A stretch of DNA of 64,000 nucleotides, taken from Candidatus Buchananbacteria bacterium. Lineage in GTDB: Bacteria > Patescibacteriota > Patescibacteriia > 2-01-FULL-39-33. Shown piece after piece: positions 2,191 through 34,854 of the stretch. Position numbers and translations under genes: made by a program. Numbering within the stretch: the stretch's first letter is position 1; the number at the start of each line of letters is the position of its first letter. The notes below the pieces were generated by a model. The model was not told the origin of the DNA. It saw nothing but the letters and a program-made list of their open reading frames with translations, and made no database searches. The stretch covers positions 18,512 to 82,511 of the forward strand of contig CAISTG010000061.1 in NCBI GenBank assembly GCA_903888345.1, written 5' to 3'.

Positions 2191-2200
2191 TCCTAAATTT

Positions 2201-2989: not shown

Positions 2990-2999
2990 ACTACATCAT

Positions 3000-5796: not shown

Positions 5797-6673
5797 AACA
5801 AGAGTTTTATTAACTGGAGCCAGTGGATTTATTGGTCGCAATATTCGAGAACAGCTGGACGATAAATACGAGCTACTGTGTCCCAGCAGTCATGATTTGA
5901 ATTTGTTGGATAGCGCAGTCGTGTCAGAATATTTAGCGTCAAAGCAACCGGATCTGGTTGTGCATGTGGCAGGTAAGGGCGTTAGCCGCGGGCAACCTTT
6001 GACGGCGGATATTGCCGAAAATAATCTGCGGATGTTTTTTAATTTAGTCCGAAACAAAAAACATTTTCAACGTTTGATTGTCATTGGTTCGGGAGCGGAG
6101 TATGATAAAAGCCGATCAATTAGCCAGGTAACGGAAGCGGATTTCGATCGATCGGTGCCTCAAGATCAATATGGATTCTCCAAATACGTGATGTCTAAAT
6201 ACGCCGAGCAAGTCGACTACATCACCCACCTGAGATTATTCGGCGTTTATGGCAAGTACGAGGATTATACCATTCGCTTTATTTCCAATATGATCGCTCG
6301 CGCCCTAAATGATTTACCTCTGGTGATAAATCAAAACGCCAATTTCGATTATATCTTTATTGATGATTTAGTCCGGATTATTGATTTAATGATTATGGCT
6401 AAGCCAGTGCAGACCTTTTACAATTTAGGCGGTGACCAAGCAGTTGAGTTATTGCAAGTGGCCCAATTAGTTAATGAACAATTAAATAAACGCTTGCCAA
6501 TAGAAATCAAGATTAGTGGTCTTAATAAAGAGTATACTTGCTCTTCCGATCGCTTTAAGCAGGAGTATCCCAATTTTAAATTTACTGATCTCAAAGTGGC
6601 GATTCAAAAGCTTACTTATTACTATCAGAATAATAACGAGACCATTGATCCTGACAAATTAAGAACGAATTAA
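5789..6673 (+). CDS. NAD(P)-dependent sugar epimerase/reductase (SDR; GDP-fucose-synthase-like fold)
   Basis: N-terminal Rossmann motif 'VLLTGASGFIGRNI' and 'YGFSKYVMSKY' (YxxxK). Lies inside the nucleotide-sugar cluster. Confidence 0.6.
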   Translation: MSKTRVLLTGASGFIGRNIREQLDDKYELLCPSSHDLNLLDSAVVSEYLASKQPDLVVHVAGKGVSRGQPLTADIAENNLRMFFNLVRNKKHFQRLIVIGSGAEYDKSRSISQVTEADFDRSVPQDQYGFSKYVMSKYAEQVDYITHLRLFGVYGKYEDYTIRFISNMIARALNDLPLVINQNANFDYIFIDDLVRIIDLMIMAKPVQTFYNLGGDQAVELLQVAQLVNEQLNKRLPIEIKISGLNKEYTCSSDRFKQEYPNFKFTDLKVAIQKLTYYYQNNNETIDPDKLRTN

Positions 6674-6676
6674 ACT

Positions 6677-7768
6677 TTGTTAGTTATGGAAAATATTATG
6701 AACAATTCCGATCAAATCATTCAAGAGGATTTAAGCTTCATCGCGCAGGCTGCTTTGCCGTGGGCCGAATTGGCGGGAAAAAATGTCTTGATTACGGGAG
6801 CGAGTGGCGCTTTGCCGGCCTATATGGTTGAAACGATCCTATACCTTAATGAAAAGGTTTTTGAAGCCAAGGCAACAATTTTTGCTTTAGTCCGCAATGA
6901 GGCTAAAGCGAAGGCAAGATTTAAACGCTATGAAAATAATCCGTACTTGAAGTTTATTATTCAGGATGTTTGCGATAAAATCGTGGTGGATGACGACCTC
7001 GATTATATTATTCATGCAGCCAGCCAGGCCAGCCCTAAGTATTATGGGCAGGATCCGGTCGGTACGCTATTGCCCAATGTTTTGGGGACTTATCACTTAT
7101 TAGAATTGGCGCGACAAAAGCGGCTGAAGGCATTTTTATTTTTTAGTTCCAGTACGGTCTACGGTAAAATGATCGCTAATGATGGCTCAGCTGCCGAAGC
7201 CGATTTTGGCGTGCTGAATCCGCTGACTATCGCTGCTTGCTATCCAGAAAGCAAAAGAATGGGGGAGACGATGTGCGCTGCCTGGTTAAGTCAATATCAA
7301 ATACCAATCAAGATTATTAGGCCGTTTCATACTTATGGTCCCGGGATTTCTTTAGATGATGGCCGTGTCTTTGCTGATTTTTGCAAGAATATTATTAATG
7401 ACGAGGCTATCAGCCTCAATAGTGACGGCAGTGCTAAGCGAGCTTTTTGCTATTTAGCTGATGCGACGATCGGATTTTTTACGGTGTTACTTAAGGGTGA
7501 GGTGGGAGAGGCCTATAATGTCGCTGGTGCCGAAGAAATCAGTATTTTGGAATTGGCGCGCTTGTTGGTTGGGTTATTTCCGGAAAAAAATATTGATATT
7601 TCTTACCAAGAAAATACAAATAAGGGTTATTTGAAAACAGCGGTCACTAGTTATGTCCCTAATTCTAATAAACTCAAGGCTCTTGGTTGGCAACAGAAGT
7701 ATCCAATTAAGGAGGGTTTTCGCAGAATGATTACGAACTATCTTAATGAATTAGGTTCTGAGGCGTAA
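6677..7768 (+). CDS. NAD-dependent epimerase/dehydratase family protein
   Basis: 'VLITGASGALPAY' Rossmann motif, 'YPESKRMGE' (YxxxK), 363 aa. Confidence 0.6.
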   Translation: MLVMENIMNNSDQIIQEDLSFIAQAALPWAELAGKNVLITGASGALPAYMVETILYLNEKVFEAKATIFALVRNEAKAKARFKRYENNPYLKFIIQDVCDKIVVDDDLDYIIHAASQASPKYYGQDPVGTLLPNVLGTYHLLELARQKRLKAFLFFSSSTVYGKMIANDGSAAEADFGVLNPLTIAACYPESKRMGETMCAAWLSQYQIPIKIIRPFHTYGPGISLDDGRVFADFCKNIINDEAISLNSDGSAKRAFCYLADATIGFFTVLLKGEVGEAYNVAGAEEISILELARLLVGLFPEKNIDISYQENTNKGYLKTAVTSYVPNSNKLKALGWQQKYPIKEGFRRMITNYLNELGSEA

Positions 7769-7799
7769 CTTAGGCCTCGACAATTTAAATATAATTTTT

Positions 7800-9104
7800 A
7801 TGAATGAAAATCTTAAAGCAGAGTTAATTAAAGAGTATAACTCACGTTTCCCCCAAAAGGAATTTACAGCGGAAATTAGTGCGGTGCCGGTATCGGGCAA
7901 GGTTTTTGATGAGCAGGAAATTTTGCTGATGACCGAGGCTGTTTTGGACGGCTGGTGGACTGAAGGTCGGTTTACGGCTGAGTTCGAACAGAAATTGGCC
8001 GAGTTTGTCGGCGTACAATATTGCGCCGCGGTTAATTCTGGATCATCGGCTAATCTTTTAGCGATTGCTTGTTTGACTTCACAGAAACTGCCGCAGGAAA
8101 AGAGACTGCAACCGGGAGATGAGGTTATTACGGTGGCGGCTGGCTTTCCCACGACCATTAATCCTTTATTGCAATTTAATTTAACACCAGTATTTATTGA
8201 TGTCGAATTGGGAACTTACGTTCCTTCCCTTGAATCAATTAAAGCTGCTCTATCTGATAAAACAAAAGCGGTCATGATTGCTCATACCTTGGGCAATCCT
8301 TTCGAACTGGAGGAAATTGTTGAATTTTGCCAGCAGCATAATTTATGGTTAATCGAAGATAATTGCGATGCTTTGGGCTCAAGGCTCAATGGAAAAAAAA
8401 CTGGATCTTTCGGCGATATTTCGACGCTCAGTTTTTATCCGGCCCATCATATCACTACCGGTGAAGGTGGCGCGGTTTTGACTAATAATGCTTTGCTTAA
8501 TCGGATCATTAGATCAATCCGCGACTGGGGTCGGGATTGTTGGTGCCCCACCGGTAAGGATGATTCTTGTCAGCGACGCTTTGAGTGGCAATTAGGCGCC
8601 TTACCATTAGGTTATGATCATAAGTATACTTACAGTGAAATTGGTTACAATCTTAAAATGATGGATGTTCAGGCGGCTCTCGGCTTAGCCCAGTTCCAAA
8701 AATTGCCAATGTTTATCGAGAAACGCAAAACTAATTTTAAATTGCTGTATTCTGCTTTTAAAAAATTTGATGATGTATTTATCTTGCCGCAATGGAGCGT
8801 TGGCGCCGACCCGAGTTGGTTTGGATTTTTGTTGACGGTTAAAGATGGGGCAAAATTCAAGCGTGATGATTTATTAAAATTCTTGAATAGTAAAAAAATT
8901 GGCACGCGCTTATTATTTGCCGGCAATGTCACCAAGCAACCGTATTTTACGGAGAGAAGCGTTGCTTTTCGAGTTGCTGGCACTTTAGACAATACCGATA
9001 AGATTATGAATGATACTTTTTGGATTGGTGTGGGGCCCTTAGTAACCGAGAGTATGATTGGATATATAATAAAGGCAATTGAAGGCTTCCTGGCAAGAAA
9101 TTAA
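7800..9104 (+). CDS. rfbH: CDP-6-deoxy-D-xylo-4-hexulose 3-dehydrase (E1; PMP-dependent DegT/DnrJ/EryC1 family)
   Basis: 'PGDEVITVAAGFPTTINP', 'DWGRDCWCPTGKDDSCQRRFEWQLGALPLGYDHKYTYSEIGYNLKMMDVQAALGLAQ' and 'IGTRLLFAGN...QPYF' are collinear with Salmonella RfbH/DdhC as recalled. 434 aa. Confidence 0.9.
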   Translation: MNENLKAELIKEYNSRFPQKEFTAEISAVPVSGKVFDEQEILLMTEAVLDGWWTEGRFTAEFEQKLAEFVGVQYCAAVNSGSSANLLAIACLTSQKLPQEKRLQPGDEVITVAAGFPTTINPLLQFNLTPVFIDVELGTYVPSLESIKAALSDKTKAVMIAHTLGNPFELEEIVEFCQQHNLWLIEDNCDALGSRLNGKKTGSFGDISTLSFYPAHHITTGEGGAVLTNNALLNRIIRSIRDWGRDCWCPTGKDDSCQRRFEWQLGALPLGYDHKYTYSEIGYNLKMMDVQAALGLAQFQKLPMFIEKRKTNFKLLYSAFKKFDDVFILPQWSVGADPSWFGFLLTVKDGAKFKRDDLLKFLNSKKIGTRLLFAGNVTKQPYFTERSVAFRVAGTLDNTDKIMNDTFWIGVGPLVTESMIGYIIKAIEGFLARN

Positions 9105-11788: not shown

Positions 11789-14509
11789 TTGCCTATGTCC
11801 GAGTTTAGTAAAATATTCAAAAAAAATATTTTAGCCATCAGTGTATCTGCCGGTTTTATATTTCTGACGATTTGGGCGGGTAATCTTATTTCAGTGGTTA
11901 CCAGCCGCGATATTTTAGATCCACTGAAGGTTACTGTTGAGAGGCTAGACGGTCATCGGCCTAGCTCAGTTAAGGTTTTGGCGACTTTGTCACGGGCGGG
12001 AAATACTATCAATTTGGAGCCGGTAGCTGGCGCGCCTAATCAGTGGGATAATCAGTATAAGACCTTTATCGCCAAGTTGATGCTTGGGTTTAAGGCGGAG
12101 GACTTCGATCAACTGGCAACGGTAGTGGTTGAGTTAGGCGGTAAAAGGTTTGTGTATTCTAAAGAACAGTTTTTGCAGCAGTGGCCGCTGGTTAAGATAA
12201 AAAATGAGGAGTTACTACTTACTGACACAGCGGGCGAATCTCACTACGAAGTCTATGAGGCACCATCAGAGATTAGGGCCAATCCGTTAGCGTTACCCTT
12301 GGTACCGGGAATTTTCAGTAGCCTAAATTTTAATGGTAAAGATAATTTGCTATTGCGACCACTAATTGGTAGTCTCCAGACAGCCAGCTTTATAATTGGT
12401 CTCCTGATCTGGTGGTGTCTATTATGGTGGAGGTTTTTTCGACCAACTAAGACTGTCTCGACCGAGTCAGAATTATTAAATTCACAACGGCAGTTTATGA
12501 TCGGCGGTTTGAGTATTTTAGTCGCAGTGATCGTACTCGCGCTGATTAATGTACTGATTTTGGCCTACTATCGACCGGACACCTCGCAAGTAATTGTTGA
12601 GGCGGCGAAAATTTATCTTAAAGGCACTTTAGCGGCCTTCTTGCCGAAACCAGTTGAACGGCTACAGTTTGTTGTAAGTATCTTGCTGAGTCCGTTTATC
12701 TTGTGGTTATCTTATAGTCAGATCAAGCGACTAATTAATCGATGGTCGGAAAAAATATTGAAACCTGGCTATTACTGGCTGAGTATTTTTATTCCTTTGA
12801 GTTTGTTTGCCGTAATTTATCTGGGCTTGGCGGTAAGTAACTTTTTATATGTCAGTACGAGTTTTTCGTTTGGTTATTTCGGCAAATTCATTTTTGGCTG
12901 GATATTGTTTCCTTTGATGGTCTGGCTAAGTCAGCAGCAGTTTCAACAGCAAAGCCATCGAGTTGGTAAATATTTGCTATATGTAAGTTGTGGTTTTTTT
13001 GCTTTGCTTTCAGCCTTTATAAATACTTTTGCTTCCAATAATCTCGATTTAGTGACGGGTCGCTGGGTGGCCATGCATTTTGATCCGGTTTTTTATGTGA
13101 TGACGCAAGTGATGGCAGGGAAAACTATGTTAGTAAATTTAACCGGATTATATGGGCTTTATCCTATTTTTTTGCAGCCACTATTTAGCTTGATTGGCTT
13201 GAATGTTCTGAAATTTACTTTTGTATTCGGCTTTATTTTTGCTAGTGCCTATTTCTGTATTTTTATTTTTTTGCAACAGCAGGTTAAGAGTCGCTTGATT
13301 TTAGGGTTTAGTTTTTTAACACTTGTTTTCTATGTCTTAGATAATAATGTTAACCCGATTCCTTATTTTCAATATTGGCCCATTCGGACAATCTTTCCTT
13401 GTTTAATGCTGCTACTTGTTTCAATTTATGCCAAGAGCGAAAATAAATTGGTTTATTATTTGGGTTTTATTGTCAGCTCTTTGGCACTGTTGTGGAATTT
13501 TGATTCTGGTATCATCGTCATCCTGGCCTGGCTAATCTCTTTATGTTACTTAGAATTATTTAATAGCGATAAGCGATTGGTGGTTTTCGCTTTAGTCCGC
13601 CATTTTTTGGTGAGTCTAAGTTCTTTAGTGGTGGTGCTGGGCGTTTATGGTTTGTATACGTTTGGTCGCAGTGGAAGCTGGCCGAATTTACAGTTATTAT
13701 GGCAATATCAAAAAATGTTTGTTGCTGGCTATTTCTTGATTCCGATGCCTTTTCCGCACCTTTGGGTCGCTGTCGCCCTTGTCTTTTTGATTGGCCTGTT
13801 AATTCCAATTATGATTTGGCTTGATGATAAGTCGCGTCGCGAGCGGGGGTTTGTTATGCTTTTTGTAACTGTTCTGGGCTTAGGTCTGTTTAGTTATTAT
13901 GAGGGGCGTTCGCACGATTTGACTTTCTATAGCCCGCTCTATACTGTCATTATTTTGTTGGCCTTACTGGCTGATGGCGCTTACGCGAAATATTTAAAAC
14001 ATCAAATAAATTACGGTCTGGGCCTAATACTGTTAATGGTAATCTTTTTTATTTCCGCGGCACCGTTTAATTTGTTGTTTAATCTCGGTAAATATTATTC
14101 TTGGGTCGGTCCGCATGCGGTGGCAGCGGCTTCCCAAAAATCAACAAGTCTAACGAGAAATGTCGCCTTTATTAAACAGCATACGGTAGTGGGGGAGCGG
14201 ATTTTAATAGTGGCCAGAGATTCTAATGATGGTATTTATTATGGAGAATCGCAAACGCGGGCCGCCTTGTCTTTGCCGGCGTCAACTGACATATTTTTCC
14301 AATCAGAAATCGATCGCTTAGCCAGTTTTTTATTATGTAATCAATCGGTCAAAGTGTTTATTTATCCTTATAGTAGCTTCAGCTTTGATGATCAACGAGT
14401 TCAGCAAAGTATTAAGAATGATTATGTGGCGACGGCAATCAGCCAAGATGATATGGCCCTAGTTAATAATACACAAGTGCGACAAAACGCTTGTGACTTA
14501 AATAAGTAA
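11789..14509 (+). CDS. Large polytopic membrane protein (906 aa), candidate GT-C glycosyltransferase
   Basis: N-terminal TM anchor, soluble segment, then about 15 hydrophobic helices and a C-terminal soluble domain. Location next to a polyprenol-P-sugar synthase suggests a lipid-linked-donor glycosyltransferase. No diagnostic motif recognised. Confidence 0.35.
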   Translation: MPMSEFSKIFKKNILAISVSAGFIFLTIWAGNLISVVTSRDILDPLKVTVERLDGHRPSSVKVLATLSRAGNTINLEPVAGAPNQWDNQYKTFIAKLMLGFKAEDFDQLATVVVELGGKRFVYSKEQFLQQWPLVKIKNEELLLTDTAGESHYEVYEAPSEIRANPLALPLVPGIFSSLNFNGKDNLLLRPLIGSLQTASFIIGLLIWWCLLWWRFFRPTKTVSTESELLNSQRQFMIGGLSILVAVIVLALINVLILAYYRPDTSQVIVEAAKIYLKGTLAAFLPKPVERLQFVVSILLSPFILWLSYSQIKRLINRWSEKILKPGYYWLSIFIPLSLFAVIYLGLAVSNFLYVSTSFSFGYFGKFIFGWILFPLMVWLSQQQFQQQSHRVGKYLLYVSCGFFALLSAFINTFASNNLDLVTGRWVAMHFDPVFYVMTQVMAGKTMLVNLTGLYGLYPIFLQPLFSLIGLNVLKFTFVFGFIFASAYFCIFIFLQQQVKSRLILGFSFLTLVFYVLDNNVNPIPYFQYWPIRTIFPCLMLLLVSIYAKSENKLVYYLGFIVSSLALLWNFDSGIIVILAWLISLCYLELFNSDKRLVVFALVRHFLVSLSSLVVVLGVYGLYTFGRSGSWPNLQLLWQYQKMFVAGYFLIPMPFPHLWVAVALVFLIGLLIPIMIWLDDKSRRERGFVMLFVTVLGLGLFSYYEGRSHDLTFYSPLYTVIILLALLADGAYAKYLKHQINYGLGLILLMVIFFISAAPFNLLFNLGKYYSWVGPHAVAAASQKSTSLTRNVAFIKQHTVVGERILIVARDSNDGIYYGESQTRAALSLPASTDIFFQSEIDRLASFLLCNQSVKVFIYPYSSFSFDDQRVQQSIKNDYVATAISQDDMALVNNTQVRQNACDLNK

Positions 14510-20201: not shown

Positions 20202-22112
20202 ATGGCCGCTTACACCCTAATCTTTTTTTATGGCTGGGCTATGTTGTTGTCTTTCATTGGTTTCGGTTGGCTCGTAACGACCTTACTGCTTAACCATAAA
20301 TCTTTTGCCATTGGTACCCAAGCAGTATTTGGCGTGATTGTATTTTTGTTGGTTGGTGGCTACTTAGATTTCTTCAAAGTTGTTTCGCCCACGTCACTCT
20401 TAAGTGTCATTGGGGTTGGCCTGTTGATTTTTATTTATGCGTTGAGTCAGAATTACCGGGTGACAATTGATTGGTTTAATGCTGCTTGGCGGGTAATTAA
20501 AAGTAACAAACAGTGGGCCCTGGTTCTGGGGCTAGTATTATTGCTGATTATTTTTAGGTATGCTTTAGCGGTGGCTTTTTTCCCGTTTCATACTTCCGAC
20601 GATTATCAGGGTTATTTAGTGTTTCCTGAAAAAATGATTCAAACTGGGCAACTCGGTAATGATCCCTTTAGTGAGCGACGCATTGTTTCATCTTTGGGCG
20701 GCAGTTATTTGTTGAGCGCGGCAGTTTTGGCGGTTGGTTCCCTGAAGAATTTGCATTTGATTGATCACGGTTTAGGTGTGGTGATGTTATTATTAGTATT
20801 AATCGAATTGCTCACTCAACTGAAATTAAGAAAATGGTATGCGCTACTGGTTGTTTTACTGGTGGTTTTAATTCCGAGTCCATCGGGGAATGTTACTAGC
20901 TTTTTTTTGGCGGCCGCTATATTTTTAGCTCTCTTTCGTTTGGTATACTTTAAAGAAAAAATCTCTGATTGGCGATTACTGAGTGTTGTCGGGTTTCTAA
21001 CATTGGGCCTGGTGATTCTAAAAACAAATCTAGTTATCCCGGCCCTGGCTTTGTATGGCTGTTTTTTTATTTTTTGCTTTTATCTGCGATCGTGGAAAAT
21101 CTGGCTGCCTCAGGGATTAATTATTTTCGCGTTAGCAATAATTGCTTTGGCGCCATGGCTATTATCAATGCTGGCTTCATCTGGCACTTTGTTTTATCCG
21201 TTTTTGGGGCCGGGGTTTTATGGTACGCGCTATGGAAATTTTGCTGGTCATTTTATGTTGTTTAATATTTTCAGTCTATTTAGATTGATTACGGAGTTTA
21301 TTAGTAGTATTAATTTGTTTATACCACTATTTATCTTATTGATATTGATTTTTAGACGACCTGCAAAAAATAAATTTATTTTAGGATCGATCGCCTTAAG
21401 TTGTCTGTTGGGTATAGTGGCTGTTATTTATGGCGTTGGCGGTTACAGTTTATATTATTATACTTTTCCTTTTGTTTTGCCGACTGTAATTTTTCTGTTG
21501 ACAATTGAACTGGCTGATTCGGGGTCAACGGAAAATCCAACTGCCGACTCCAGTGTCTACCCTCTGCTACTGGCGGTCTTGATGGTGGGGTTATTTATAC
21601 AAAAAGATTTGGGCTTGATGACGGATATCAAAGCTAGCCTAAGCTTCGATCAAGGAATTAAGGTCGGCTTAATAAACACCGAGTTAGTGACCTTGGAAGA
21701 ACGGCAACAATTTATTAATTTACAAAATTCGATTCCAGCACAAGCGACTTTGTTGGCGCGGCTCGATAAGAATTTTGTTTTTGATTTCAGGCGCAACAAT
21801 GTCTTTATTATTGATTTGCCGGGTGGATCGAGTCTGCCGCCCGGGTTACCCTTTCGTCAAGGAGGCGAACGGTTGGCCGATTATTTGTTGTCAGTCGGAA
21901 TTCAATATGTCGCCTACTCCTATGGCAATGAAGCAAATTTTTCTAAACAAGGAAATAGTGGTATGTTAAGAGCACATGTTAATCCCTGGCTAAAGGCCGA
22001 AACTGAGCACAGTTTCGATTTTCAGGATAGCCTAATGGAGTTAGCAAAAAGCCGCAAAATTATTTATGATGACGGTAAAAATTTTGTGTTGGATTTATCA
22101 CTCAAACAATAA
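20202..22112 (+). CDS. Polytopic membrane protein (636 aa), candidate glycan polymerase/GT-C
   Basis: About 14 predicted TM helices followed by a roughly 190-aa soluble C-terminal domain. First extracytoplasmic loop 'SDDYQGYLVFPEKMIQTGQLGNDPF'. Confidence 0.35.
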   Translation: MAAYTLIFFYGWAMLLSFIGFGWLVTTLLLNHKSFAIGTQAVFGVIVFLLVGGYLDFFKVVSPTSLLSVIGVGLLIFIYALSQNYRVTIDWFNAAWRVIKSNKQWALVLGLVLLLIIFRYALAVAFFPFHTSDDYQGYLVFPEKMIQTGQLGNDPFSERRIVSSLGGSYLLSAAVLAVGSLKNLHLIDHGLGVVMLLLVLIELLTQLKLRKWYALLVVLLVVLIPSPSGNVTSFFLAAAIFLALFRLVYFKEKISDWRLLSVVGFLTLGLVILKTNLVIPALALYGCFFIFCFYLRSWKIWLPQGLIIFALAIIALAPWLLSMLASSGTLFYPFLGPGFYGTRYGNFAGHFMLFNIFSLFRLITEFISSINLFIPLFILLILIFRRPAKNKFILGSIALSCLLGIVAVIYGVGGYSLYYYTFPFVLPTVIFLLTIELADSGSTENPTADSSVYPLLLAVLMVGLFIQKDLGLMTDIKASLSFDQGIKVGLINTELVTLEERQQFINLQNSIPAQATLLARLDKNFVFDFRRNNVFIIDLPGGSSLPPGLPFRQGGERLADYLLSVGIQYVAYSYGNEANFSKQGNSGMLRAHVNPWLKAETEHSFDFQDSLMELAKSRKIIYDDGKNFVLDLSLKQ

Positions 22113-22114
22113 AT

Positions 22115-23002
22115 TTGAAAATTTTTATGTTAGAAATAGTTCATAATTGCCGCGTCTGTAATTCGACTAATTTGGTCTTGGTAAAAAAATCAAATCTTGA
22201 TTCGGTTTTGGACAGTAATCACTTTGCCATCACCGATAGTCATTATGGCCAAACCTTAGACCTATACGCCTGTGAGGAATGTGGTTTGATACAATCAAGG
22301 CGACTCGAGGATGTTAATAGTTTTTATGAAGGCCTCCAAGATAAGGAGTATGAAAATACCCGGGCTGAACGAGCGCGACAAGCACGTCAGATTGTCATGG
22401 GTTTAACTAAGCTGATGCCAACTGGTAGATTATTTGATGTCGGCGCCGGCAGCGGTATTTTGGTTGAACAAGCGTTAGAATTAGGCTATACTGCCAGTGG
22501 ACTCGAGCCGTCAACTTGGTTGCAAGAACAGGCTCAGCAACGCGGTTTACCGGTTTTGGCGGGAGTATTGCCGGATGAACGGGTGGGTGATAACTTTGAT
22601 CTGGTAACTTTAGTTGATGTTATCGAACATGTTGATGATCCATTTGGATTGCTGCTCGACATTAAAGCAATCCTCAGACCTAACGGTTTATTGTTGCTAA
22701 CCACACCTGATGTCGATTCGTTATTGGCGCGCTGCTTGGGTTGGCGCTGGTGGCACTTCCGGGTAGCGCATATCAGTTACTTTAATTTAAAAACAATTAG
22801 GCGCCTGTTAGAGAGGGCGGGTTTTCAGATAATTAGCGTCAAGCGTCCCGGTTGGTATTTTACCTTGGATTATCTTTGGTTGCGGCTCAATCAGTATCTG
22901 CCAAAAAAATTGCGTTTGCCAGCCCCAGCATTTTTTAGTAAATTAACGATCCCACTTAATCTCTTCGATTCCTACGAATTAATTTGTAAAGTAATAAAAT
23001 AA
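22115..23002 (+). CDS. Class I SAM-dependent methyltransferase with N-terminal Zn-ribbon (NDP-sugar C-methyltransferase-like)
   Basis: N-terminal 'CRVCNS...CEECG' ribbon and SAM motif I 'DVGAGSGILVEQA'. Confidence 0.6.
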   Translation: MKIFMLEIVHNCRVCNSTNLVLVKKSNLDSVLDSNHFAITDSHYGQTLDLYACEECGLIQSRRLEDVNSFYEGLQDKEYENTRAERARQARQIVMGLTKLMPTGRLFDVGAGSGILVEQALELGYTASGLEPSTWLQEQAQQRGLPVLAGVLPDERVGDNFDLVTLVDVIEHVDDPFGLLLDIKAILRPNGLLLLTTPDVDSLLARCLGWRWWHFRVAHISYFNLKTIRRLLERAGFQIISVKRPGWYFTLDYLWLRLNQYLPKKLRLPAPAFFSKLTIPLNLFDSYELICKVIK

Positions 23003-23006
23003 ACTT

Positions 23007-23936
23007 ATGAGTTTGATAAAGTATATTAAAATTGCTCGACCGAATCACTGGTTTAAAAATATTTTCATTATTCCGGGAACGATTTTTGCGTTGTTAATTT
23101 TTCCTAACTATTCTTGGCTGGTAGTTGGTAAATTTATCGTTGGTTTTTTTAGTGTTTGTCTGGTGGCTTCGGCCAATTATGTTATTAACGAATGGCTCGA
23201 TGCAGATTTTGATCGCCATCATCCACTTAAGAAAGATCGCCCCTCGGTGACTGGAGGAATTGAGGCAAAATATGTCTATTTAGAATACCTCATATTGATA
23301 ATCCTGGGTCTGAGTTTAGCGGCTTTGGTTTCGATTTATTTTTTATTGACTGCTGTCTTGCTTCTAGTAATGGGCGTCATTTATAATGTTAAGCCGTTGC
23401 GCACGAAAGATAAGTTGTATGTCGATGTTTTATCGGAATCAATTAATAATCCGATTCGCTTTGCTTTGGGCTGGTTTATTGTAACTAGCTCGTTGTTGTT
23501 ACCATCTAGTCTGCTAATAGCTTATTGGATGGCCGGTGCCTTTTTGATGGCGGTTAAACGTTATGCGGAATATCGCTTCATTAATAATAAGGAGATTGCC
23601 GGATTGTATCGACGATCTTTTCGCTTCTACAATGAGAATAATCTGTTAGTTTCTATTCTGTTTTATGCCATGAGCTTTGCCTTTTTCTTTGGGGTATTTA
23701 TGGTCAAATATCGGATTGAATTGTTGCTGACCTTGCCTTTATTTTCTATTTTATTTTGCTGGTATTTGCACTTAGGCATGAAGGCGGATTCACCGGCGCA
23801 ACGCCCCGAAGGTCTATATAAAGAACGGGCGTTTTCACTCTATTTCATCTTGGTGATTCTGGTTGTGGTGGCTTTATTGTTTTTTCACTTTCCCTTTCTC
23901 GCTTATTTTTTGAATAAAAGTTTTTTATTGAAATAA
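23007..23936 (+). CDS. UbiA-family prenyl-phosphate transferase (decaprenyl-phosphate phosphoribosyltransferase-like)
   Basis: Nine TM helices. 'NEWLDADFDRHHPLKKDRPSVTG' resembles the DPPR-synthase (Rv3806c-type) Asp-rich motif. Confidence 0.6.
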   Translation: MSLIKYIKIARPNHWFKNIFIIPGTIFALLIFPNYSWLVVGKFIVGFFSVCLVASANYVINEWLDADFDRHHPLKKDRPSVTGGIEAKYVYLEYLILIILGLSLAALVSIYFLLTAVLLLVMGVIYNVKPLRTKDKLYVDVLSESINNPIRFALGWFIVTSSLLLPSSLLIAYWMAGAFLMAVKRYAEYRFINNKEIAGLYRRSFRFYNENNLLVSILFYAMSFAFFFGVFMVKYRIELLLTLPLFSILFCWYLHLGMKADSPAQRPEGLYKERAFSLYFILVILVVVALLFFHFPFLAYFLNKSFLLK

Positions 23937-23937
23937 A

Positions 23938-24573
23938 ATGGTTAATTTATCAAAATTACTGCAATTAAATTGGCAACAGTATCAGGTGATTATTTTTGAC
24001 GTTGATGGCACCCTGTATGATTTATCGAAAATGCATCGTTTGATGCGCCGAGAATTTCTACGTTATTATGTTCGGCGACCTTGGCGTTGTTATGAACTGG
24101 TGGTGATTTATTACTTTCGCATAAATCGTGAACGTTTGGCTCGCGAAGGCGCCAGGGAAATTGCTCATAAGCAGTACGCTATCGTCGCTAAGAAATTTGG
24201 TCTGAGTGTCGAGCAAGTAAAAAAGATTATCGAATATTGGATGGAGATTCGACCCTTAGAGTATTTGGCGGACTGCGCTTATCCCGAGGTTAAGGCGCTA
24301 ATTGAAAATATTTTTCAAACCGAAACGCGCATTGTTTATTATTCAGATTATTATCCGCTTAATAAGATTTCGCGGCTCGGGTTACCCTATCATTATTGGT
24401 TTGATAGTAGCGCCGCCACCATTGATGCCTTGAAGCCGGCTGCTGGTGGCCTAGAATATATTATGAAAACGTTAGCAGTGACCGCGAGCGATTGTCTCCT
24501 GATTGGTGATCGTTATGATAAGGAGGGTTTGGCGGCGCAAAAAGTTGGTATGGATTATTTAATATTGGATTAG
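23938..24573 (+). CDS. HAD-superfamily hydrolase (phosphatase)
   Basis: 'VIIFDVDGTLYD' HAD motif I and a C-terminal 'GDRYDKEG' motif. Confidence 0.65.
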   Translation: MVNLSKLLQLNWQQYQVIIFDVDGTLYDLSKMHRLMRREFLRYYVRRPWRCYELVVIYYFRINRERLAREGAREIAHKQYAIVAKKFGLSVEQVKKIIEYWMEIRPLEYLADCAYPEVKALIENIFQTETRIVYYSDYYPLNKISRLGLPYHYWFDSSAATIDALKPAAGGLEYIMKTLAVTASDCLLIGDRYDKEGLAAQKVGMDYLILD

Positions 24574-24577
24574 TAAT

Positions 24578-25312
24578 ATGTCATCATTTAAACAAGTAAT
24601 TAAAAAAGCTATTCGCTATTTCTGGAGTCCACTGATTCTAGGGGATTATTTTAAATTCAAAAAATCCTTAAAATCCGATCACCGCTTTAGGTTGCACTAT
24701 CGAGATGTTTACCCGTGTTTTAAAGATAAAACTATTAAAACTGGTTTTGATCGCCATTATGTTTATCACACCTCCTGGGCGGCTAGAAAGTTGGCAGAAA
24801 CTAAACCGGAATTACATCTTGATATTTCTTCCAGTTTATATTTTTCTGGGATTGTGTCCGCCTTTGTACCGATTAAATTTTATGATTATCGGCCGGCCGA
24901 TATTCAATTAGATGGGTTAGAGAGCTTGGGGAGTGATTTATTATCCCTGCCTTTTGCTGATAATAGCGTATCTAGTTTGTCTTGTATGCATGTGATTGAG
25001 CATATCGGTTTGGGCCGTTATGGTGATCCGATTGATCCACAGGCTGATGCAAAAGCGATTGTCGAACTAAAACGGGTTTTGGCTGTCGGCGGAAATTTAT
25101 TATTTGTAGTGCCAATTGGTCGGGAGGCGGTCATTCAGTATAACGCGCATCGCATTTACACTTATCAATTGGTTTTGGAATTATTTGCTGGTTTAAAGTT
25201 AAAAGAATTTTCTTTGATACCTGAAGTTTCGGGAGCGCTGATTAAAAATGCTACGGCCTCAGACGTTGCTCGAGAAAATTACGCCTGTGGGTGTTTTTGG
25301 TTTACTAAATAA
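24578..25312 (+). CDS. SAM-dependent methyltransferase (DUF268-like)
   Basis: 'SLPFADNSVSSLSCMHVIEHIGLGRYGDPID...GGNLLFVVPIG' resembles the DUF268 / Methyltransf_11 core. Confidence 0.5.
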   Translation: MSSFKQVIKKAIRYFWSPLILGDYFKFKKSLKSDHRFRLHYRDVYPCFKDKTIKTGFDRHYVYHTSWAARKLAETKPELHLDISSSLYFSGIVSAFVPIKFYDYRPADIQLDGLESLGSDLLSLPFADNSVSSLSCMHVIEHIGLGRYGDPIDPQADAKAIVELKRVLAVGGNLLFVVPIGREAVIQYNAHRIYTYQLVLELFAGLKLKEFSLIPEVSGALIKNATASDVARENYACGCFWFTK

Positions 25313-28490: not shown

Positions 28491-28880
28491 ATGGTTAATT
28501 TAACGAAACAATTCATTAAATTTTGTCTGGTGGGCTTGACTAATTTGGCGGTCCAGTTGTTTTTTTATTACTTATTGACCAGATATTTACACCTTTATTA
28601 TCTGTTGGCTGCCGTTCTGTCTTTTATGGTGGCCGTGACTTGGAGTTTTTATATCAATAAAAAGTGGACTTTTAAGCTCAATGATGGCGATCATCGAGAG
28701 CAGTATCTAAAATTTTTTCTCGCCAATTCCTTGATTGCAATTATTAGTATTGGTCTATTATCGCTCTTCGTGGAACGCTTTGGTATCCACGACATGGTAG
28801 CCCAATTGATTGCGGCCGTTATCTGTGCCGTGATAAATTTCGCCCTTAACCGCTTCTGGACATTTAAGGCTCAAAGTTGA
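28491..28880 (+). CDS. GtrA-family membrane protein (polyprenol-linked sugar translocation)
   Basis: 129 aa with 4 TM helices. 'FIKFCLVGLTNLAVQLFFYYLL' and 'KKWTFK' match the GtrA pattern. Confidence 0.75.
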   Translation: MVNLTKQFIKFCLVGLTNLAVQLFFYYLLTRYLHLYYLLAAVLSFMVAVTWSFYINKKWTFKLNDGDHREQYLKFFLANSLIAIISIGLLSLFVERFGIHDMVAQLIAAVICAVINFALNRFWTFKAQS

Positions 28881-28925
28881 TAAATAACCCTAAATTTGTT
28901 ATAATATAAGCAGTATTAATACTTA

Positions 28926-29963
28926 ATGGATAACCTTATGCCAATTACCAAAGCTATTTTTGATAAAAAAAATATTCTCGTGATCGGTGGCGCTGGCTTT
29001 GTCGGCTCGCATTTATGTGATGAATTACTCAAATCAAACAAAGTAATCTGTGTTGATAATTTTTTGACCGGCGATAATGTTAATATTTCACATTTATTAC
29101 AAAATCCTGATTTTCGGTTTATTAATCATAATATTATTGAGCCACTCGACTTGGAGAGTTTAGCTGAGCTAGAGTATTTTCGCCTGTCGTTTCAGGGTGT
29201 GCAGGAAATCTATTTTTTGGCCTCGCCAACTTCGCCCAGCACCTATATTAAGTATCCCATTGAAACTCTGCTGGTTAATTCCGTCGGTTTAAGAAATGCC
29301 TTAGACTTGGCTGCTAAATATCAATCAAAGTTACTGTTCGCTTCTTCGCCGGCGGTCTATGGTTCAGGCACTGGTCAGATGCTAATTAAGGAAACTTATG
29401 TTGGCCCGGTTGATAATTTAAATCCGCGCGCTTGTTATGTGGAAGCCAAGCGCTTCGGAGAAACATTAGTAATGAACTATCATCAAAAAACCGGCATTGA
29501 TACGAAAATCGCCAGAATTTTTAATTGCTATGGTTCACGTATGGGGTTAAAGGATGGTCGCATGATACCCGAGTTGATCCAGGCAGCACGCCATGGTCAG
29601 GAGCTGGTTATTTATGGTAAAGAAACTGATGTTGCTTCCTATTTTTTTGTTGAAGATCTAATTCGTGCTCTGATTAAATTAATGCATTCAGAAGAATCTG
29701 GTCCACTGAATATTGCATCGGAATGGAAAATTAGCTTGAAAGAAGTGGGAGAAAAAATTATTAGTTTATGCAACTCTCAATCGAAAATTATTTTTAATGA
29801 TCGGCCAACAAATTTTGCGGCGCAACCGCTCGCTGATATTACTTTAGCCAAAGAAAAGCTTGGTTGGTTTCCAATTGTTTTATTAGATGAAGGTCTCAAA
29901 GAAACGATTGATTACCTGTCAGCTCAAGAGGGAATTAGACGTCCAGAATCTGCCAATTTATGA
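28926..29963 (+). CDS. NAD-dependent epimerase/dehydratase, UDP-glucuronate decarboxylase (UXS)-like
   Basis: 'ILVIGGAGFVGSHLCDELL...VICVDNFLTG' and 'CYVEAKRFGE' (YxxxK). Confidence 0.6.
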   Translation: MDNLMPITKAIFDKKNILVIGGAGFVGSHLCDELLKSNKVICVDNFLTGDNVNISHLLQNPDFRFINHNIIEPLDLESLAELEYFRLSFQGVQEIYFLASPTSPSTYIKYPIETLLVNSVGLRNALDLAAKYQSKLLFASSPAVYGSGTGQMLIKETYVGPVDNLNPRACYVEAKRFGETLVMNYHQKTGIDTKIARIFNCYGSRMGLKDGRMIPELIQAARHGQELVIYGKETDVASYFFVEDLIRALIKLMHSEESGPLNIASEWKISLKEVGEKIISLCNSQSKIIFNDRPTNFAAQPLADITLAKEKLGWFPIVLLDEGLKETIDYLSAQEGIRRPESANL

Positions 29964-30625
29964 AAGCCGTTATAATTATTCCCGCTTATAACGAAGAAAA
30001 AGTTATTGGTCAGGTGATAGGGGGAATTTTACAACAGCAGGCTCTCGCTGCTGCTGTTTTGGTTATTGATGATGGATCTACCGACAACACTTTCGCAGCC
30101 GCTAAACAAACTGGCGTGATTGTTTTGCGCCACAAAATTAATCGGGGCCAGGGTGCGGCTATTAAGACTGGCATTGATTTTGCAATTAGTCATGGTTATG
30201 AGGCGGCGGTTTTCTTTGATGCTGATGGTCAAATGGAGGCCAGGGAGATTGAACTATTTTTAAATCAATTGGCGGCCGGCTATAGTGTTGTTTTGGGCTC
30301 GAGAAATTTAGGTCAGGCGATTGATATGCCGGGGCTTAAAAAAATAGTTAAGCGGGCGGCGTTGATTTTTACCAATTTCACTTCTGGTTTAAAATTAACT
30401 GATACCCATAATGGTTTTCAGGCCTGGACAATCGAAGCTTTAAAGAAGATTAGGTTAAATCAAGATCGCATGGCTTATGCCAGTCAAGTAATTAATGAAG
30501 TGGCGCGCTTGCGCTTGAAATATATTGAGGTACCAGTGACGATTAAGTATACTGATTATTCTAAGCAGAAAGGCCAGAGCATTTGGAACTCTTTCACGAT
30601 CTTGTGGGATTTAATTATTAAGTAA
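29960..30625 (+). CDS. GT2 polyprenol-phosphate glycosyltransferase (GtrB/DPM1-like)
   Basis: 'KAVIIIPAYNEEKVIGQVI', 'VIDDGSTDNT' and 'FFDADGQ'. Confidence 0.75.
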   Translation: MKAVIIIPAYNEEKVIGQVIGGILQQQALAAAVLVIDDGSTDNTFAAAKQTGVIVLRHKINRGQGAAIKTGIDFAISHGYEAAVFFDADGQMEAREIELFLNQLAAGYSVVLGSRNLGQAIDMPGLKKIVKRAALIFTNFTSGLKLTDTHNGFQAWTIEALKKIRLNQDRMAYASQVINEVARLRLKYIEVPVTIKYTDYSKQKGQSIWNSFTILWDLIIK

Positions 30626-30630
30626 TTCAT

Positions 30631-30966
30631 ATGTTAATACAATTCATTCTTGTACTCATTATCGCTGTCATCATTTGGCGGCAGGCAGTCAGATTAAAAA
30701 ACAAAGAACTCACGGTTAAGCAATTTGCTGGTTGGTTAGTAATTTGGTTGGCGGGTTTAATTATTGTCATCTGGCCTAATTCGACTGCTTGGTTGGCGGG
30801 AATTGTCGGCGTCGGTCGCGGTTCTGATTTAGTAATTTATTTGTCAGTAATTTTTATAATTTATTTTTTGTTCCGCATTTTATTACGTATCGAGAAGATC
30901 GAAAAGAATTTAACTAAGTTGACGCGTGAGGACGCCATTAAGACTTATGATTCCAGTGCCAAATAA
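30631..30966 (+). CDS. DUF2304-family small membrane protein
   Basis: 111 aa with 3 TM helices. Typically co-occurs with GtrB-like GT2 genes. Confidence 0.55.
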   Translation: MLIQFILVLIIAVIIWRQAVRLKNKELTVKQFAGWLVIWLAGLIIVIWPNSTAWLAGIVGVGRGSDLVIYLSVIFIIYFLFRILLRIEKIEKNLTKLTREDAIKTYDSSAK

Positions 30967-32002
30967 AAAAGTCGCCTTAGCGATTGTCAGCTATAACTCT
31001 TCCGACAAGTTAAAGGATTGTTTGGCGTCTTTAGTGTCTCAGAATTATCCAATCGAACTGGTAGATTATATTTTGGTTGATAATGACTCTCAGGATGATA
31101 GTGTGGCTATCGTTGAGGCCAGCGAACTGAGTTTTAAAATTATTAGAAATGAAATTAACACAGGCTTTGCTGGTGCTAATAATCAGGCCTTTGAATTGGC
31201 ACGCGAATTAGGAGCTGATTATTTAGTTTTGCTTAATGACGATACGATTGTGACACCGGATTGGCTAAATCATTTAATTGTTACGGCCGAAAGTTCACCG
31301 CATGTTGCTGCGGTTCAAGCCAAATTAATGCTTTATCCCGAAAAAGAGCTAATCAATAGCTTTGGCAATGCCTTAACGTTTTTGGGGTTTGGCTATTGTA
31401 ATTGTTATCGCGAACCTGATCGCCCCAATATTGCTCCTTTTGAAGTGGCCTATCCATCAGGCGCTGCCGTCGCTATTAAAATGTCGGCATTACAGAAAAC
31501 GGGTTTATTTGACGTTAAGTTTTTCATGTATCACGAGGATGTGGATTTGGGCTGGCGCTTAAGATTGGCCGGTTATCAAGTTTTGCTGGAGCCGCAAGCC
31601 GTAGTTTTTCATAAATATAGTTTTGCCAAAGCTGACTACAAGTATTATCACATGGATCGCAATCGGTTGTTAGTGTATTTCAAGAATTATAGTTTTTGGA
31701 CTTTGTTGTTGTTGATGCCCGCCTTCAAAGTGATGGAATTAGGAATTTGTTTTTTTGCTTGGCGCAGTGGTTGGTTGAAACATAAATTTTCTGGTTATTG
31801 GTGGCTACTAAAGCATTGGCGCTATATTTTAAGTGAACGAAAGAAAATTAAGCAGTTGCGCGTAGTAAGTGATAGAGAAATTTTAAGATTGCTAGTGGCA
31901 GAAATAAATTTTCAGGAAGTTAATAATCCATTGCTAACCAAAATTGTTAATCCGATAATGAAAATATATTTAGCAGTTTGTAAGCAGATTATTTTTTGGT
32001 AA
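30947..32002 (+). CDS. GT2 glycosyltransferase (rhamnosyltransferase-like) with C-terminal membrane segment
   Basis: 'VALAIVSYNSSDKLKDCLASL', 'ILVDNDSQDDS' and 'LNDDTIV'. Start placed at the ATG at 30947. Confidence 0.7.
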   Translation: MIPVPNKKVALAIVSYNSSDKLKDCLASLVSQNYPIELVDYILVDNDSQDDSVAIVEASELSFKIIRNEINTGFAGANNQAFELARELGADYLVLLNDDTIVTPDWLNHLIVTAESSPHVAAVQAKLMLYPEKELINSFGNALTFLGFGYCNCYREPDRPNIAPFEVAYPSGAAVAIKMSALQKTGLFDVKFFMYHEDVDLGWRLRLAGYQVLLEPQAVVFHKYSFAKADYKYYHMDRNRLLVYFKNYSFWTLLLLMPAFKVMELGICFFAWRSGWLKHKFSGYWWLLKHWRYILSERKKIKQLRVVSDREILRLLVAEINFQEVNNPLLTKIVNPIMKIYLAVCKQIIFW

Positions 32003-33495: not shown

Positions 33496-33566
33496 GGGCC
33501 TATGGTCTAGTGGTATGACACGGCATTCGCATTGCCGGAACGGCGGTCCGATTCCGCCTAGGTCCA
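33496..33566 (+). tRNA. tRNA-Ala (anticodon CGC), no encoded CCA
   Basis: Cloverleaf folds by hand. Acceptor GGGCCTA/TAGGTCC with a G3:U70 pair (Ala identity), anticodon loop TTCGCAT, T-arm GGCGG-TCCGATT-CCGCC. 71 nt. Confidence 0.8.
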
Positions 33567-34026: not shown

Positions 34027-34100
34027 GGACACATAGCTCAGCTGGTTAGAGCGCGCCGTTCACATCGGCGAGGTCGTAGGTTCGAATCCTATTGTGTCCA
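34027..34100 (+). tRNA. tRNA-Val (anticodon CAC), no encoded CCA
   Basis: Acceptor GGACACA/TGTGTCC, D-arm GCTC-AGCTGGTTA-GAGC, anticodon loop TTCACAT, T-arm GTAGG-TTCGAAT-CCTAT. Confidence 0.85.
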
Positions 34101-34104
34101 CATT

Positions 34105-34854
34105 ATGTCAAATTTACTTTGGTCATTACTAGCGGTAGCGCTTACTAGCTTGGTTTCTTTTTCGGGAGCCTTGGTTTTAGTCTTGAGCGATCGCTGGCTT
34201 AAAAGGTCTTTAATTTACTTTGTTTCTTTTGCCGCGGGCTCGATGATGGGTGCCGCCTTTTTTCATTTGTTGCCGGAAGCATTAAGTTCACCGGTTTATA
34301 ACTTGGCAATCTTTGCTTGGCTACTCTTTGGCTTTTGTTGTTTCTTTGTGATGGAGAAATTCTTGCGCTGGCGCCATTGTCATGAAGAGGGGTGCCAAGA
34401 GCATGAACATCTAAGTTGGATGAATATCTTTGGTAATAGTTTTCACAACATGACTGATGGCATGATTATCTTCGCTTCTTTTTATGCGGGTGGTCCGGTT
34501 CTGGGAATTCCCGTTACCTTGTCAATAATTTTGCATGAAGTGCCGCAAGAGTTAGGGGATTTTTCAATTCTGATTTATGCCGGCTTTAGCAAGTATAAGG
34601 CTCTATGGTATAATTTTCTTTCCGCCTTACCGGCATTCTTGGGCGTACTTATTGGATTGATTGCTATTAATTTTGATGCGAGATTTGATGTATTCTTGCT
34701 GCCTTTTGCGGCTGGAGGATTTCTGTATATTGCTGCCTCAGACTTGGTACCAGAATTACATAAAGATGAGCATCAGAAATCAGCTGTGGGAACTTTCTTA
34801 GTTTTTATCATCGCGTTAGTCTTTATGTATTTTGTTAAAGTTTTATTTGAATAA
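34105..34854 (+). CDS. ZIP-family divalent metal (Zn) transporter
   Basis: 'HEVPQELGDFSIL' ZIP signature with multiple TM helices. Confidence 0.8.
   Translation: MSNLLWSLLAVALTSLVSFSGALVLVLSDRWLKRSLIYFVSFAAGSMMGAAFFHLLPEALSSPVYNLAIFAWLLFGFCCFFVMEKFLRWRHCHEEGCQEHEHLSWMNIFGNSFHNMTDGMIIFASFYAGGPVLGIPVTLSIILHEVPQELGDFSILIYAGFSKYKALWYNFLSALPAFLGVLIGLIAINFDARFDVFLLPFAAGGFLYIAASDLVPELHKDEHQKSAVGTFLVFIIALVFMYFVKVLFE

Follow-up and report, generated by a model that had tools for sequence, protein, structure and literature searches.

Within a 64,000-nucleotide stretch of a Candidatus Buchananbacteria contig (CAISTG010000061.1; the whole stretch is referred to hereafter as the window), four consecutive genes at positions 20202-24573 encode a GT-C-fold membrane protein, an S-adenosylmethionine (SAM)-dependent methyltransferase of the Methyltransf_23 family, a UbiA-superfamily protein and a HAD-IA phosphatase (Table 1). 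We consider it likely that these genes form a module that puts a pentofuranose on a surface polysaccharide outside the cytoplasmic membrane. The UbiA protein groups with decaprenyl-phosphoryl-5-phosphoribose (DPPR) and polyprenyl-phosphoryl-5-phosphoribose (PPPR) synthases, and its gene stands with those of a phosphatase and a GT-C enzyme; a polyprenyl-phospho-pentose donor for extracytoplasmic glycosylation, as proposed in an earlier sequence-only reading of this DNA, is therefore the best reading of the locus. The folds, residue conservation, gene linkage and gene fusions reported below were computed; the chemistry of every step is inferred from them.

The UbiA protein is most likely a polyprenyl-phosphate 5-phosphoribosyltransferase (PPPRS-like), a prediction drawn from homology, active-site residues and genomic context. 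Its best sequence match in the PDB is Rv3806c of M. tuberculosis (8j8j, E 5.9e-14), followed by AfUbiA (4.8e-7) and ApUbiA (4e-3), and searching the PDB sequences with a profile of 20 homologues widens this gap (4.4e-18, 5e-8 and 0.46, respectively). The AlphaFold2 (AF2) model (predicted local distance difference test (pLDDT) score 90.3) has a UbiA-type fold of about nine transmembrane helices; a Foldseek search of the PDB places it nearest to 8j8j (TM-score 0.78/0.83, root-mean-square deviation 3.4 Å), which beats every prenyltransferase structure (AfUbiA at 0.69, then DGGGPS, ApUbiA and UBIAD1). Scans against NCBIfam give the same ranking: the HAD-UbiA fusion model PRK08238 and three DPPR synthase (DPPRS) models score 58-77 bits, and the models for chlorophyll synthase, heme-O synthase, MqnP and UbiA 15-37 bits; no model reaches its trusted cutoff, the DPPRS-type models still being top-scoring. 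The assignment to the Rv3806c type made in the sequence-only reading is thus borne out by the sequence and fold matches and by the ligands described below, and the clustering with menaquinone, heme-O or chlorophyll prenyltransferases that it had named as refuting was not seen in the PDB, NCBIfam or fold rankings. By sequence, we place the protein in a separate, divergent clade that groups with those members of the UbiA superfamily that use phosphoribosyl pyrophosphate (PRPP). No phage genome was matched by the UbiA protein.

The residues that contact the substrate are listed for the Rv3806c-PRPP structure (PMC10994848), and comparison with that list shows that 10 of the 12 PRPP/Mg contacts are kept in the window protein. 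The Mg ligands N73, which also contacts the ribose, and D77 of Rv3806c correspond to N61 and D65, and the 5-phosphate ligands K28 and Y70 to K17 and Y58, all four being invariant in the family; the pyrophosphate ligands R22, K87, R90, K143, K208 and Y138 are conserved as R11, K75, R78, K134, R/K203 and Y126. Among 20 diverse family members the PRPP-binding equivalents are invariant except at position 203 (Arg or Lys), and the first cytoplasmic-loop motif, N61-E62-W-L-D65-A-D-F-D69, shows no variation across 20 diverse homologues. Where prenyltransferases have their second Asp-rich motif, the protein has R185-x-x-E188, such that K184-R185-Y-A-E188 aligns with KRYAE of Rv3806c and DYEFD of AfUbiA; the same RxxE replacement is found in Rv3806c and in ORF15 of Citrobacter youngae (R366/E369), a protein we return to below.

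The HAD-IA phosphatase is predicted to strip the 5-phosphate from polyprenyl-P-ribose-5-P. Its catalytic motifs (D21-x-D23-G-T25, S136, K166 and G190-D191) are intact and invariant among homologues, and its ATG at 23938 follows the last base of the UbiA stop codon at 23936 with a spacing of 1 bp. To place this pairing in context, open reading frames (ORFs) were called in 80 loci of GTDB genomes whose UbiA proteins are 51-66% identical to that of the window, and the neighbours of UbiA were compared (adjacency counts are given on 78 loci). The HAD-IA family of the window directly adjoins UbiA on the same strand in 44 of the 78, a different HAD (type IB, PF12710) follows a UbiA-GtrA pair in 13 more, and some HAD phosphatase lies within three genes of UbiA in 57. 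GtrA adjoins UbiA in 14-15 loci and directly follows it in 14. A large multi-transmembrane protein lies within three genes of UbiA in 38 of the 78 loci; in 18, all from Bacteroidota, PMT_2-type GT-C proteins are found. Gene fusions add to this picture. A word-indexed search for HAD homologues returned only 8 proteins, none of them fused, and fusions surfaced in an exhaustive profile search (741 representative clusters at E < 1e-30): P0293 joins HAD to a GtrA membrane domain, and P0276 joins it to a Methyltransf_23 domain 49% identical to the window methyltransferase, the P0276 gene lying directly upstream of a UbiA gene in locus L082.

The strongest contextual evidence for the substrate comes from locus L083 (duplicate contig L084), in which the gene inserted between UbiA and HAD is a ribose-phosphate diphosphokinase (TIGR01251, 120.7 bits, cutoff 113); a PRPP synthase in this position points to PRPP as the substrate. 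A search of the window with the PRPP synthase of L083 turned up no homologue.

The 636-residue protein at the head of the module has no Pfam or NCBIfam match, and some of its homologues match DUF8201 weakly. Its AF2 model (pLDDT 87.7, predicted TM-score 0.91) assigns it to the GT-C fold: the significant Foldseek matches in the PDB are GT-C enzymes only (STT3 6s7o and AftA 8if8 (TM-score 0.44-0.46), AglB, PglB and ArnT, then AftB, AftD and Emb). Within the family D133-D134 is nearly invariant. We predict that this protein is the user of the lipid-linked pentose. Its nearest relatives come from Patescibacteria and metagenomes, and homologues stand directly upstream of the UbiA gene or of the UbiA module in six sibling loci (L017, L008, L083, L085, L088 and L089; Table 1); in L085 and L089 they are only 34-35% identical to the window protein despite the gene order of the window. 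The sequence-only reading had placed three very large GT-C candidates in one operon with UbiA and HAD. This stands for the 636-residue protein; a 906-residue protein (11789-14509) has ~14 transmembrane segments, is unrelated to the 636-residue family and has no sequence match in Pfam, NCBIfam or the PDB, and what may be the third candidate, a 596-residue protein of ~14 transmembrane segments without a Pfam match (45075-46865), lies just after TatD and ~13 kb beyond the gene cluster. The other multi-transmembrane proteins of the operon are a Wzx-like flippase and an opposite-strand Bac_transf protein. For transport of the donor, the candidate is the GtrA protein, with four predicted transmembrane segments, which would serve as a flippase for lipid-linked monosaccharide donors, maybe shared with a neighbouring PpgS-like module; no EmrE/ArnE-like flippase gene was found with the module in the window.

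The Methyltransf_23 gene, which probably starts at ATG 22127 rather than at TTG 22115 and whose product also shows a weak match to the Methyltransf_13 zinc domain besides PF13489, is a conserved accessory gene of the module, its presumed substrate being lipid-linked ribose. A homologue adjoins UbiA in 12 of the 78 loci, and the homologues in L085 and L089 are 51-52% identical to the window protein. We tentatively suggest that the enzyme acts on the lipid-linked sugar directly after the HAD enzyme frees the 5-hydroxyl, the GT-C enzyme then transferring a methylated pentofuranose; natural HAD-methyltransferase fusions beside UbiA genes would be explained by a methyltransferase that works right after HAD.

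Taken together, the proposed pathway would begin with the UbiA enzyme taking ribose-5-phosphate off PRPP and placing it on polyprenyl phosphate, giving polyprenyl-P-ribofuranose-5-P (a step suggested by homology, active-site residues and context), from which the HAD-IA phosphatase would take off the 5-phosphate to leave polyprenyl-P-ribofuranose (as its context and intact catalytic motifs indicate). The Methyltransf_23 enzyme might, more speculatively, tailor this lipid-linked sugar; flipping of the donor to the other face of the membrane would follow, perhaps through the GtrA protein, and the GT-C enzyme would move the pentose to the polysaccharide that the remaining genes of the cluster produce. 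As to the identity of the sugar, Pfam and NCBIfam scans of the ~52 window ORFs gave no DprE1-type FAD_binding_4/ALO protein and no short-chain DprE2-type protein, and no DprE1 or DprE2 occurs among the annotated neighbour-gene clusters of the related loci; ribofuranose is therefore the default product, and the lipid probably carries ribofuranose, as such or tailored, rather than arabinose. By analogy with ORF13 of C. youngae O2, a short-chain dehydrogenase/reductase (SDR) may convert it to xylofuranose.

Several observations weigh against this reading of the module. The UbiA protein is only ~23% identical to Rv3806c and falls far below every DPPRS cutoff (NF008977, 75.2 bits against 234; NF008978, 66 against 207; NF008976, 58.3 against 474; NF006088, 76.8 against 351). 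The two contacts that are lost are each replaced by a residue invariant in the clade: Q135 of Rv3806c, which contacts ribose O3, is Gly123, and Y157, which contacts the 5-phosphate, is Asn148 (Y157 is reported to vary among mycobacteria; PMC10994848). The motif that the sequence-only reading had proposed to align, NDxxDxxxD, is retained at N61, D65 and D69, with Glu in place of Asp at its second position (NExxDxxxD). The donor may be a related but different phosphosugar. The window HAD is of subclass IA, whereas the fused HAD of PRK08238-type HAD-UbiA proteins appears to be IB; a stand-alone HAD-IB neighbour matches the N-terminus of PRK08238 and the window HAD has no such match. The GtrA gene of the window lies 4 kb downstream of the module, beside a second lipid-donor module. 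Finally, homologues of the 636-residue protein occur in L086 and L087 with no UbiA gene within 6 kb, so that the linkage of GT-C to UbiA is strong but not universal.

We weighed four other explanations of the locus. A conventional prenyltransferase role for the UbiA homologue (in making quinone, heme O, chlorophyll or ether lipid), with HAD beside it by coincidence, is very improbable. The sole trusted family match is the generic Pfam UbiA, the structures of AfUbiA and DGGGP synthase are also significant fold matches, and some homologues carry the JGI label '4-hydroxybenzoate polyprenyltransferase'; against these stand the lower scores of the prenyltransferase families (15-37 bits, 58-77 bits for phosphoribosyltransferase-type models), the loss to RxxE of the second Asp-rich motif, which binds prenyl diphosphate via Mg, the conserved Lys/Arg cluster and 5-phosphate ligands of Rv3806c, and a glycan-cluster setting beside GT-C, HAD and GtrA, with a PRPP synthase as neighbour in a sibling locus. 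That a lipid-linked (phospho)ribose is made but serves as a polymer primer or a membrane lipid head group, rather than as a monosaccharide donor for GT-C, we regard as quite unlikely: some loci of the UbiA clade have no recognisable GT-C nearby (for example the Rpe-UbiA-HAD genes of Lachnospiraceae in a housekeeping operon) and pRL10 carries only UbiA-HAD-GtrA, yet the window and six verified sibling loci all have GT-C as immediate neighbour, the cluster already has a Bac_transf initiator and a Wzx-like flippase for its main chain, and the association with GtrA fits the flipping of a monosaccharide donor.

A pathway of the mycobacterial type, in which C2 epimerisation turns the lipid-linked ribose into arabinofuranose ahead of its transfer, also seems unlikely to us. 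It shares its first two steps with the module, several genes of extended-SDR epimerase type are present in the cluster (9114, 10025 and 28926), and an SDR gene directly follows HAD in L088 and L089; these HAD-adjacent SDRs are, however, matched by the window SDRs at no more than 28% identity, the window SDRs are also accounted for by the nucleotide-sugar pathways of the cluster, and the DprE1- and DprE2-type proteins are missing from the ORFs and neighbour clusters scanned, which leaves unsupported the arabinose sense of the 'DPA-like' pathway (after decaprenyl-phospho-arabinose) put forward in the sequence-only reading. Its statement that the first two steps are those of mycobacteria stands for the UbiA enzyme, which is homologous; the phosphatase is HAD-IA and not PAP2 like Rv3807c, such that this step is analogous, not homologous. 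We likewise doubt that UbiA, HAD and the DUF268-like methyltransferase form a functional unit in which the last enzyme methylates the lipid-linked pentose. The three ORFs lie where that reading had put them and have the expected Pfam matches, the DUF268 gene begins 4 bp past the HAD stop codon, and the sibling cluster L089 has a DUF268 gene too; there, though, it is 6 kb from the module, none of the 80 related loci has a homologue, the cluster holds at least five methyltransferases, and it is the upstream Methyltransf_23 that accompanies the UbiA/HAD pair and occurs fused to HAD. The DUF268 enzyme, for want of conserved linkage to UbiA/HAD, was rejected as a pathway member and belongs to the polysaccharide cluster. 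Of the co-occurrence of the trio with GT-C genes that the sequence-only reading had proposed to check in relatives, a part was found: UbiA-HAD recurs with GT-C in the six sibling loci, and DUF268 is not in the 80.

The closest described system to the four-gene module is the three-component pentofuranose glycosylation pathway of C. youngae O1/O2, which has been characterised biochemically (Kelly et al., PNAS 2024; PMC11127046), and not the mycobacterial DPA pathway. In C. youngae, ORF15, in which an N-terminal HAD 'PRP' domain is fused to a UbiA-type PPPRS, makes undecaprenyl-phospho-ribofuranose (undP-Ribf) from PRPP; ORF14 is a small transporter/flippase for the donor; and ORF12, the founder of GT136, is the GT-C enzyme that adds the sugar (PMC11127046). 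Its authors observed farnesyl-P-ribose-5-P at m/z 513 and farnesyl-P-ribose at m/z 435. Optional epimerases diversify the sugar, for example the SDR ORF13 that leads to xylofuranose in O2, and three-component systems are called widespread, including in organisms with unknown glycans (PMC11127046). The window shares with this pathway a UbiA-fold enzyme, predicted to be a PRPP:polyprenyl-phosphate phosphoribosyltransferase, with a HAD-superfamily phosphatase and a GT-C enzyme, embedded in a polysaccharide cluster, and for the flippase it offers a small four-helix candidate; N247/D248/D251/D255 of ORF15 correspond to N61/E62/D65/D69, and R366/E369 to R185/E188. It differs in that phosphatase and transferase are separate genes, in the class of the phosphatase (HAD-IA here, against an apparent HAD-IB in the fused type; ORF15 would from its architecture belong to PRK08238), in the Glu at the second motif position, and in a flippase candidate that is GtrA-type and not EmrE/ArnE-like. 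The GT-C enzyme of the window, from an unannotated family (weak DUF8201), may belong to a family other than CAZy GT136, as judged by setting it against the description of ORF12 (conserved D31/E34/H106/R349/Y350 and a C-terminal beta-rich carbohydrate-binding module; PMC11127046). The Methyltransf_23 partner of the window and the dedicated PRPP synthase of L083 have no published counterpart.

The mycobacterial DPA pathway comprises Rv3806c (DPPRS), Rv3807c (a PAP2 phosphatase), DprE1/DprE2, Rv3789 (GtrA-like) and the Emb/Aft GT-C enzymes. As proposed for the window, the lipid-linked pentose arises in the cytoplasm and is spent by GT-C enzymes outside, and AftA is among the top fold matches of the 636-residue protein; only the first enzyme is homologous to that of the window, the phosphatase families are unrelated, and with DprE1/DprE2 genes not found in the window arabinose is not expected. 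O-antigen glucosylation by GtrA/GtrB/GtrC and the polyprenyl-P-GalNAc system PpgS/Rv3632/Rv3779 resemble the module in having three parts, namely a synthase for the lipid-linked monosaccharide, a small flippase and a GT-C enzyme. These systems load the lipid from a nucleotide sugar via a GT2 enzyme, whereas the module would use a UbiA-fold enzyme with PRPP as the presumed donor and would need a phosphatase; candidate GT2-type modules are also present in the window (the GT2 at 11054 with the 906-residue protein at 11789, and 28491-30966).

Family scans of the window ORFs identify the region 98-32002 as a polysaccharide gene cluster, with a Wzx-like flippase, ~10 glycosyltransferases (GT2/GT1/GT11), five or more methyltransferases (as would suit a heavily methylated backbone), GtrA, a PpgS-like GT2 and, on the opposite strand, the initiating enzyme, a Bac_transf phosphoglycosyltransferase. 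From 98 to 27003 the forward-strand genes are separated by gaps of no more than 42 bp or overlap, and it is therefore plausible that these polysaccharide genes form one long operon (~27 kb). The GT11 gene after DUF268 was called from 25248; its true start is likely ~25323 (Met26, where the Pfam match begins), and the apparent 65-bp overlap with the DUF268 gene therefore disappears.

Table 1. Genes of the module and its surroundings in the window, and gene order in sibling loci that carry a related GT-C gene beside UbiA (CPR, candidate phyla radiation; MAG, metagenome-assembled genome)
Feature or locus	Position or source	Strand	Description
GT-C-fold membrane protein	20202-22112	+	636 aa, ~14 transmembrane helices and C-terminal alpha/beta domain
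Methyltransf_23 SAM-dependent methyltransferase	22115-23002	+	N-terminal 4-Cys zinc ribbon; Pfam PF13489, 97 bits
UbiA-superfamily protein	23007-23936	+	309 aa; Pfam UbiA PF01040, 85 bits, E 6e-24
HAD-IA phosphatase	23938-24573	+	211 aa; Pfam HAD/HAD_2 PF00702/PF13419, E 1e-10
DUF268-like SAM methyltransferase	24578-25312	+	244 aa; Pfam PF03269, E 2.3e-15, also Methyltransf_11
GtrA-family four-helix membrane protein	28491-28880	+	129 aa; Pfam GtrA_DPMS_TM, 101.6 bits
L017, L008	two CPR genomes		GT-C, UbiA, HAD
L088	Methylomirabilis MAG		GT-C, UbiA, HAD, SDR
L085	NCBI assembly GCA_964474825.1		GT-C, Methyltransf_23, UbiA, HAD (window order)
L089	groundwater metagenome contig		GT-C, Methyltransf_23, UbiA, HAD, SDR
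L083 (duplicate contig L084)	metagenome assemblies		GT-C, UbiA, PRPP synthase, HAD

Other parts of the cluster are of interest in their own right. A nucleotide-sugar pathway at 2168-9104 comprises a nucleotidyltransferase, a 4,6-dehydratase-like SDR, two further SDRs, a DegT-type aminotransferase and a split transketolase pair (4070-4882 and 4879-5796), which points to a backbone with an unusual deoxy sugar, either branched or aminated. Downstream, 28491-32002 is a probable second lipid-linked donor module, made up of GtrA, an SDR epimerase (28926), the PpgS-like GT2 (29960; NF058614 159.8 bits, under the cutoff of 370), a small DUF2304 membrane protein (30631) and a further GT2 (30926); we take it to resemble the mycobacterial PpgS/Rv3632 polyprenyl-P-GalNAc system. 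The GT2 at 11054 (230 residues), with weak similarity to AglJ/ArnC/PpgS/dolichyl-P-hexose transferases, is directly followed by the gene for the 906-residue protein, and the two may be a third donor-synthase/transferase pair, or the 906-residue protein may be a polymerase. A short way downstream of the cluster come two tRNA genes (33496-33566 and 34027-34100), the sole Rfam matches at the gathering threshold in the window, and a ZIP transporter gene (34105-34854); a ZIP gene (243 residues) also adjoins the L083 module, which hints at related genomes with the module at different places. A 756-residue protein with a single transmembrane segment and no Pfam match is encoded on the reverse strand at 53494-55764.

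The UbiA clade is large and widely spread. Among 8,000 candidates scored there were at least 5,837 matches at E ≤ 1e-5, and 566 GTDB species representatives or more, drawn from many phyla, carry a member of the clade, the members being 55-78% identical across phyla; carriers include CPR bacteria, Bacteroidota, Lachnospiraceae, cyanobacteria and rhizobia. Its surroundings vary with the host. In L080 (11002-12887) and 14 other Bacteroidota loci (L041, L051, L057 and L059 among them; Pedobacter, Hymenobacter and Rufibacter), the order is PMT_2 GT-C (divergent), HAD, UbiA, a 480-residue flavoprotein with a GMC/pyranose-oxidase-like C-terminus and a 143-residue unannotated protein. The flavoprotein could oxidise lipid-linked ribose and so stand in for DprE1 as an analogue without homology to it. 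Seven Lachnospiraceae loci (L040, L043, L045, L054, L058, L061 and L062) have UbiA-HAD inside a housekeeping operon (RsmB, RlmN, PP2C, PrkC, RsgA and ribulose-phosphate 3-epimerase); in most of these seven a 212-residue protein with a weak phosphoribosyltransferase-domain match (19.6 bits, cutoff 26.3) comes next, and a GT-C gene is not adjacent. On the 9,146-bp plasmid p9146 of Paracoccus aestuarii (L091), UbiA and GtrA are found with a MobV relaxase and a 467-residue hypothetical protein of seven transmembrane segments, a set that looks like a portable glycan-modification cassette. Plasmid pRL10 of Rhizobium johnstonii 3841 (L090, 6950-8999) carries an overlapping UbiA-HAD-GtrA operon, which makes this well-studied strain a convenient experimental model.

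Pentofuranose side chains alter the antigenic surface of bacteria, and the biosynthesis of lipid-linked pentofuranose outside mycobacteria was worked out only in 2024; the idea is therefore no longer new, and the window holds a split-gene variant of it. What the window adds is a distinct, highly conserved clade of the key enzyme, which is spread far past the organisms studied and is accompanied by a stand-alone phosphatase and a GT-C family of its own, in some cases also by a dedicated PRPP synthase or methyltransferase. Pentofuranose-modified glycans can be sought with three markers (the UbiA clade with NExxDxxxD, a HAD-IA gene beside it and the GT-C family of the 636-residue protein), and culturable carriers for testing exist in Rhizobium johnstonii 3841 (pRL10), Pedobacter and Hymenobacter. 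If true, methylation of the lipid-linked pentofuranose would add to epimerisation, the only donor tailoring known, a second kind not yet described; it would be at home in a very widespread, cassette-like module that occurs in 566 or more GTDB species from many phyla as well as on rhizobial megaplasmids and a mobilisable plasmid of 9 kb.

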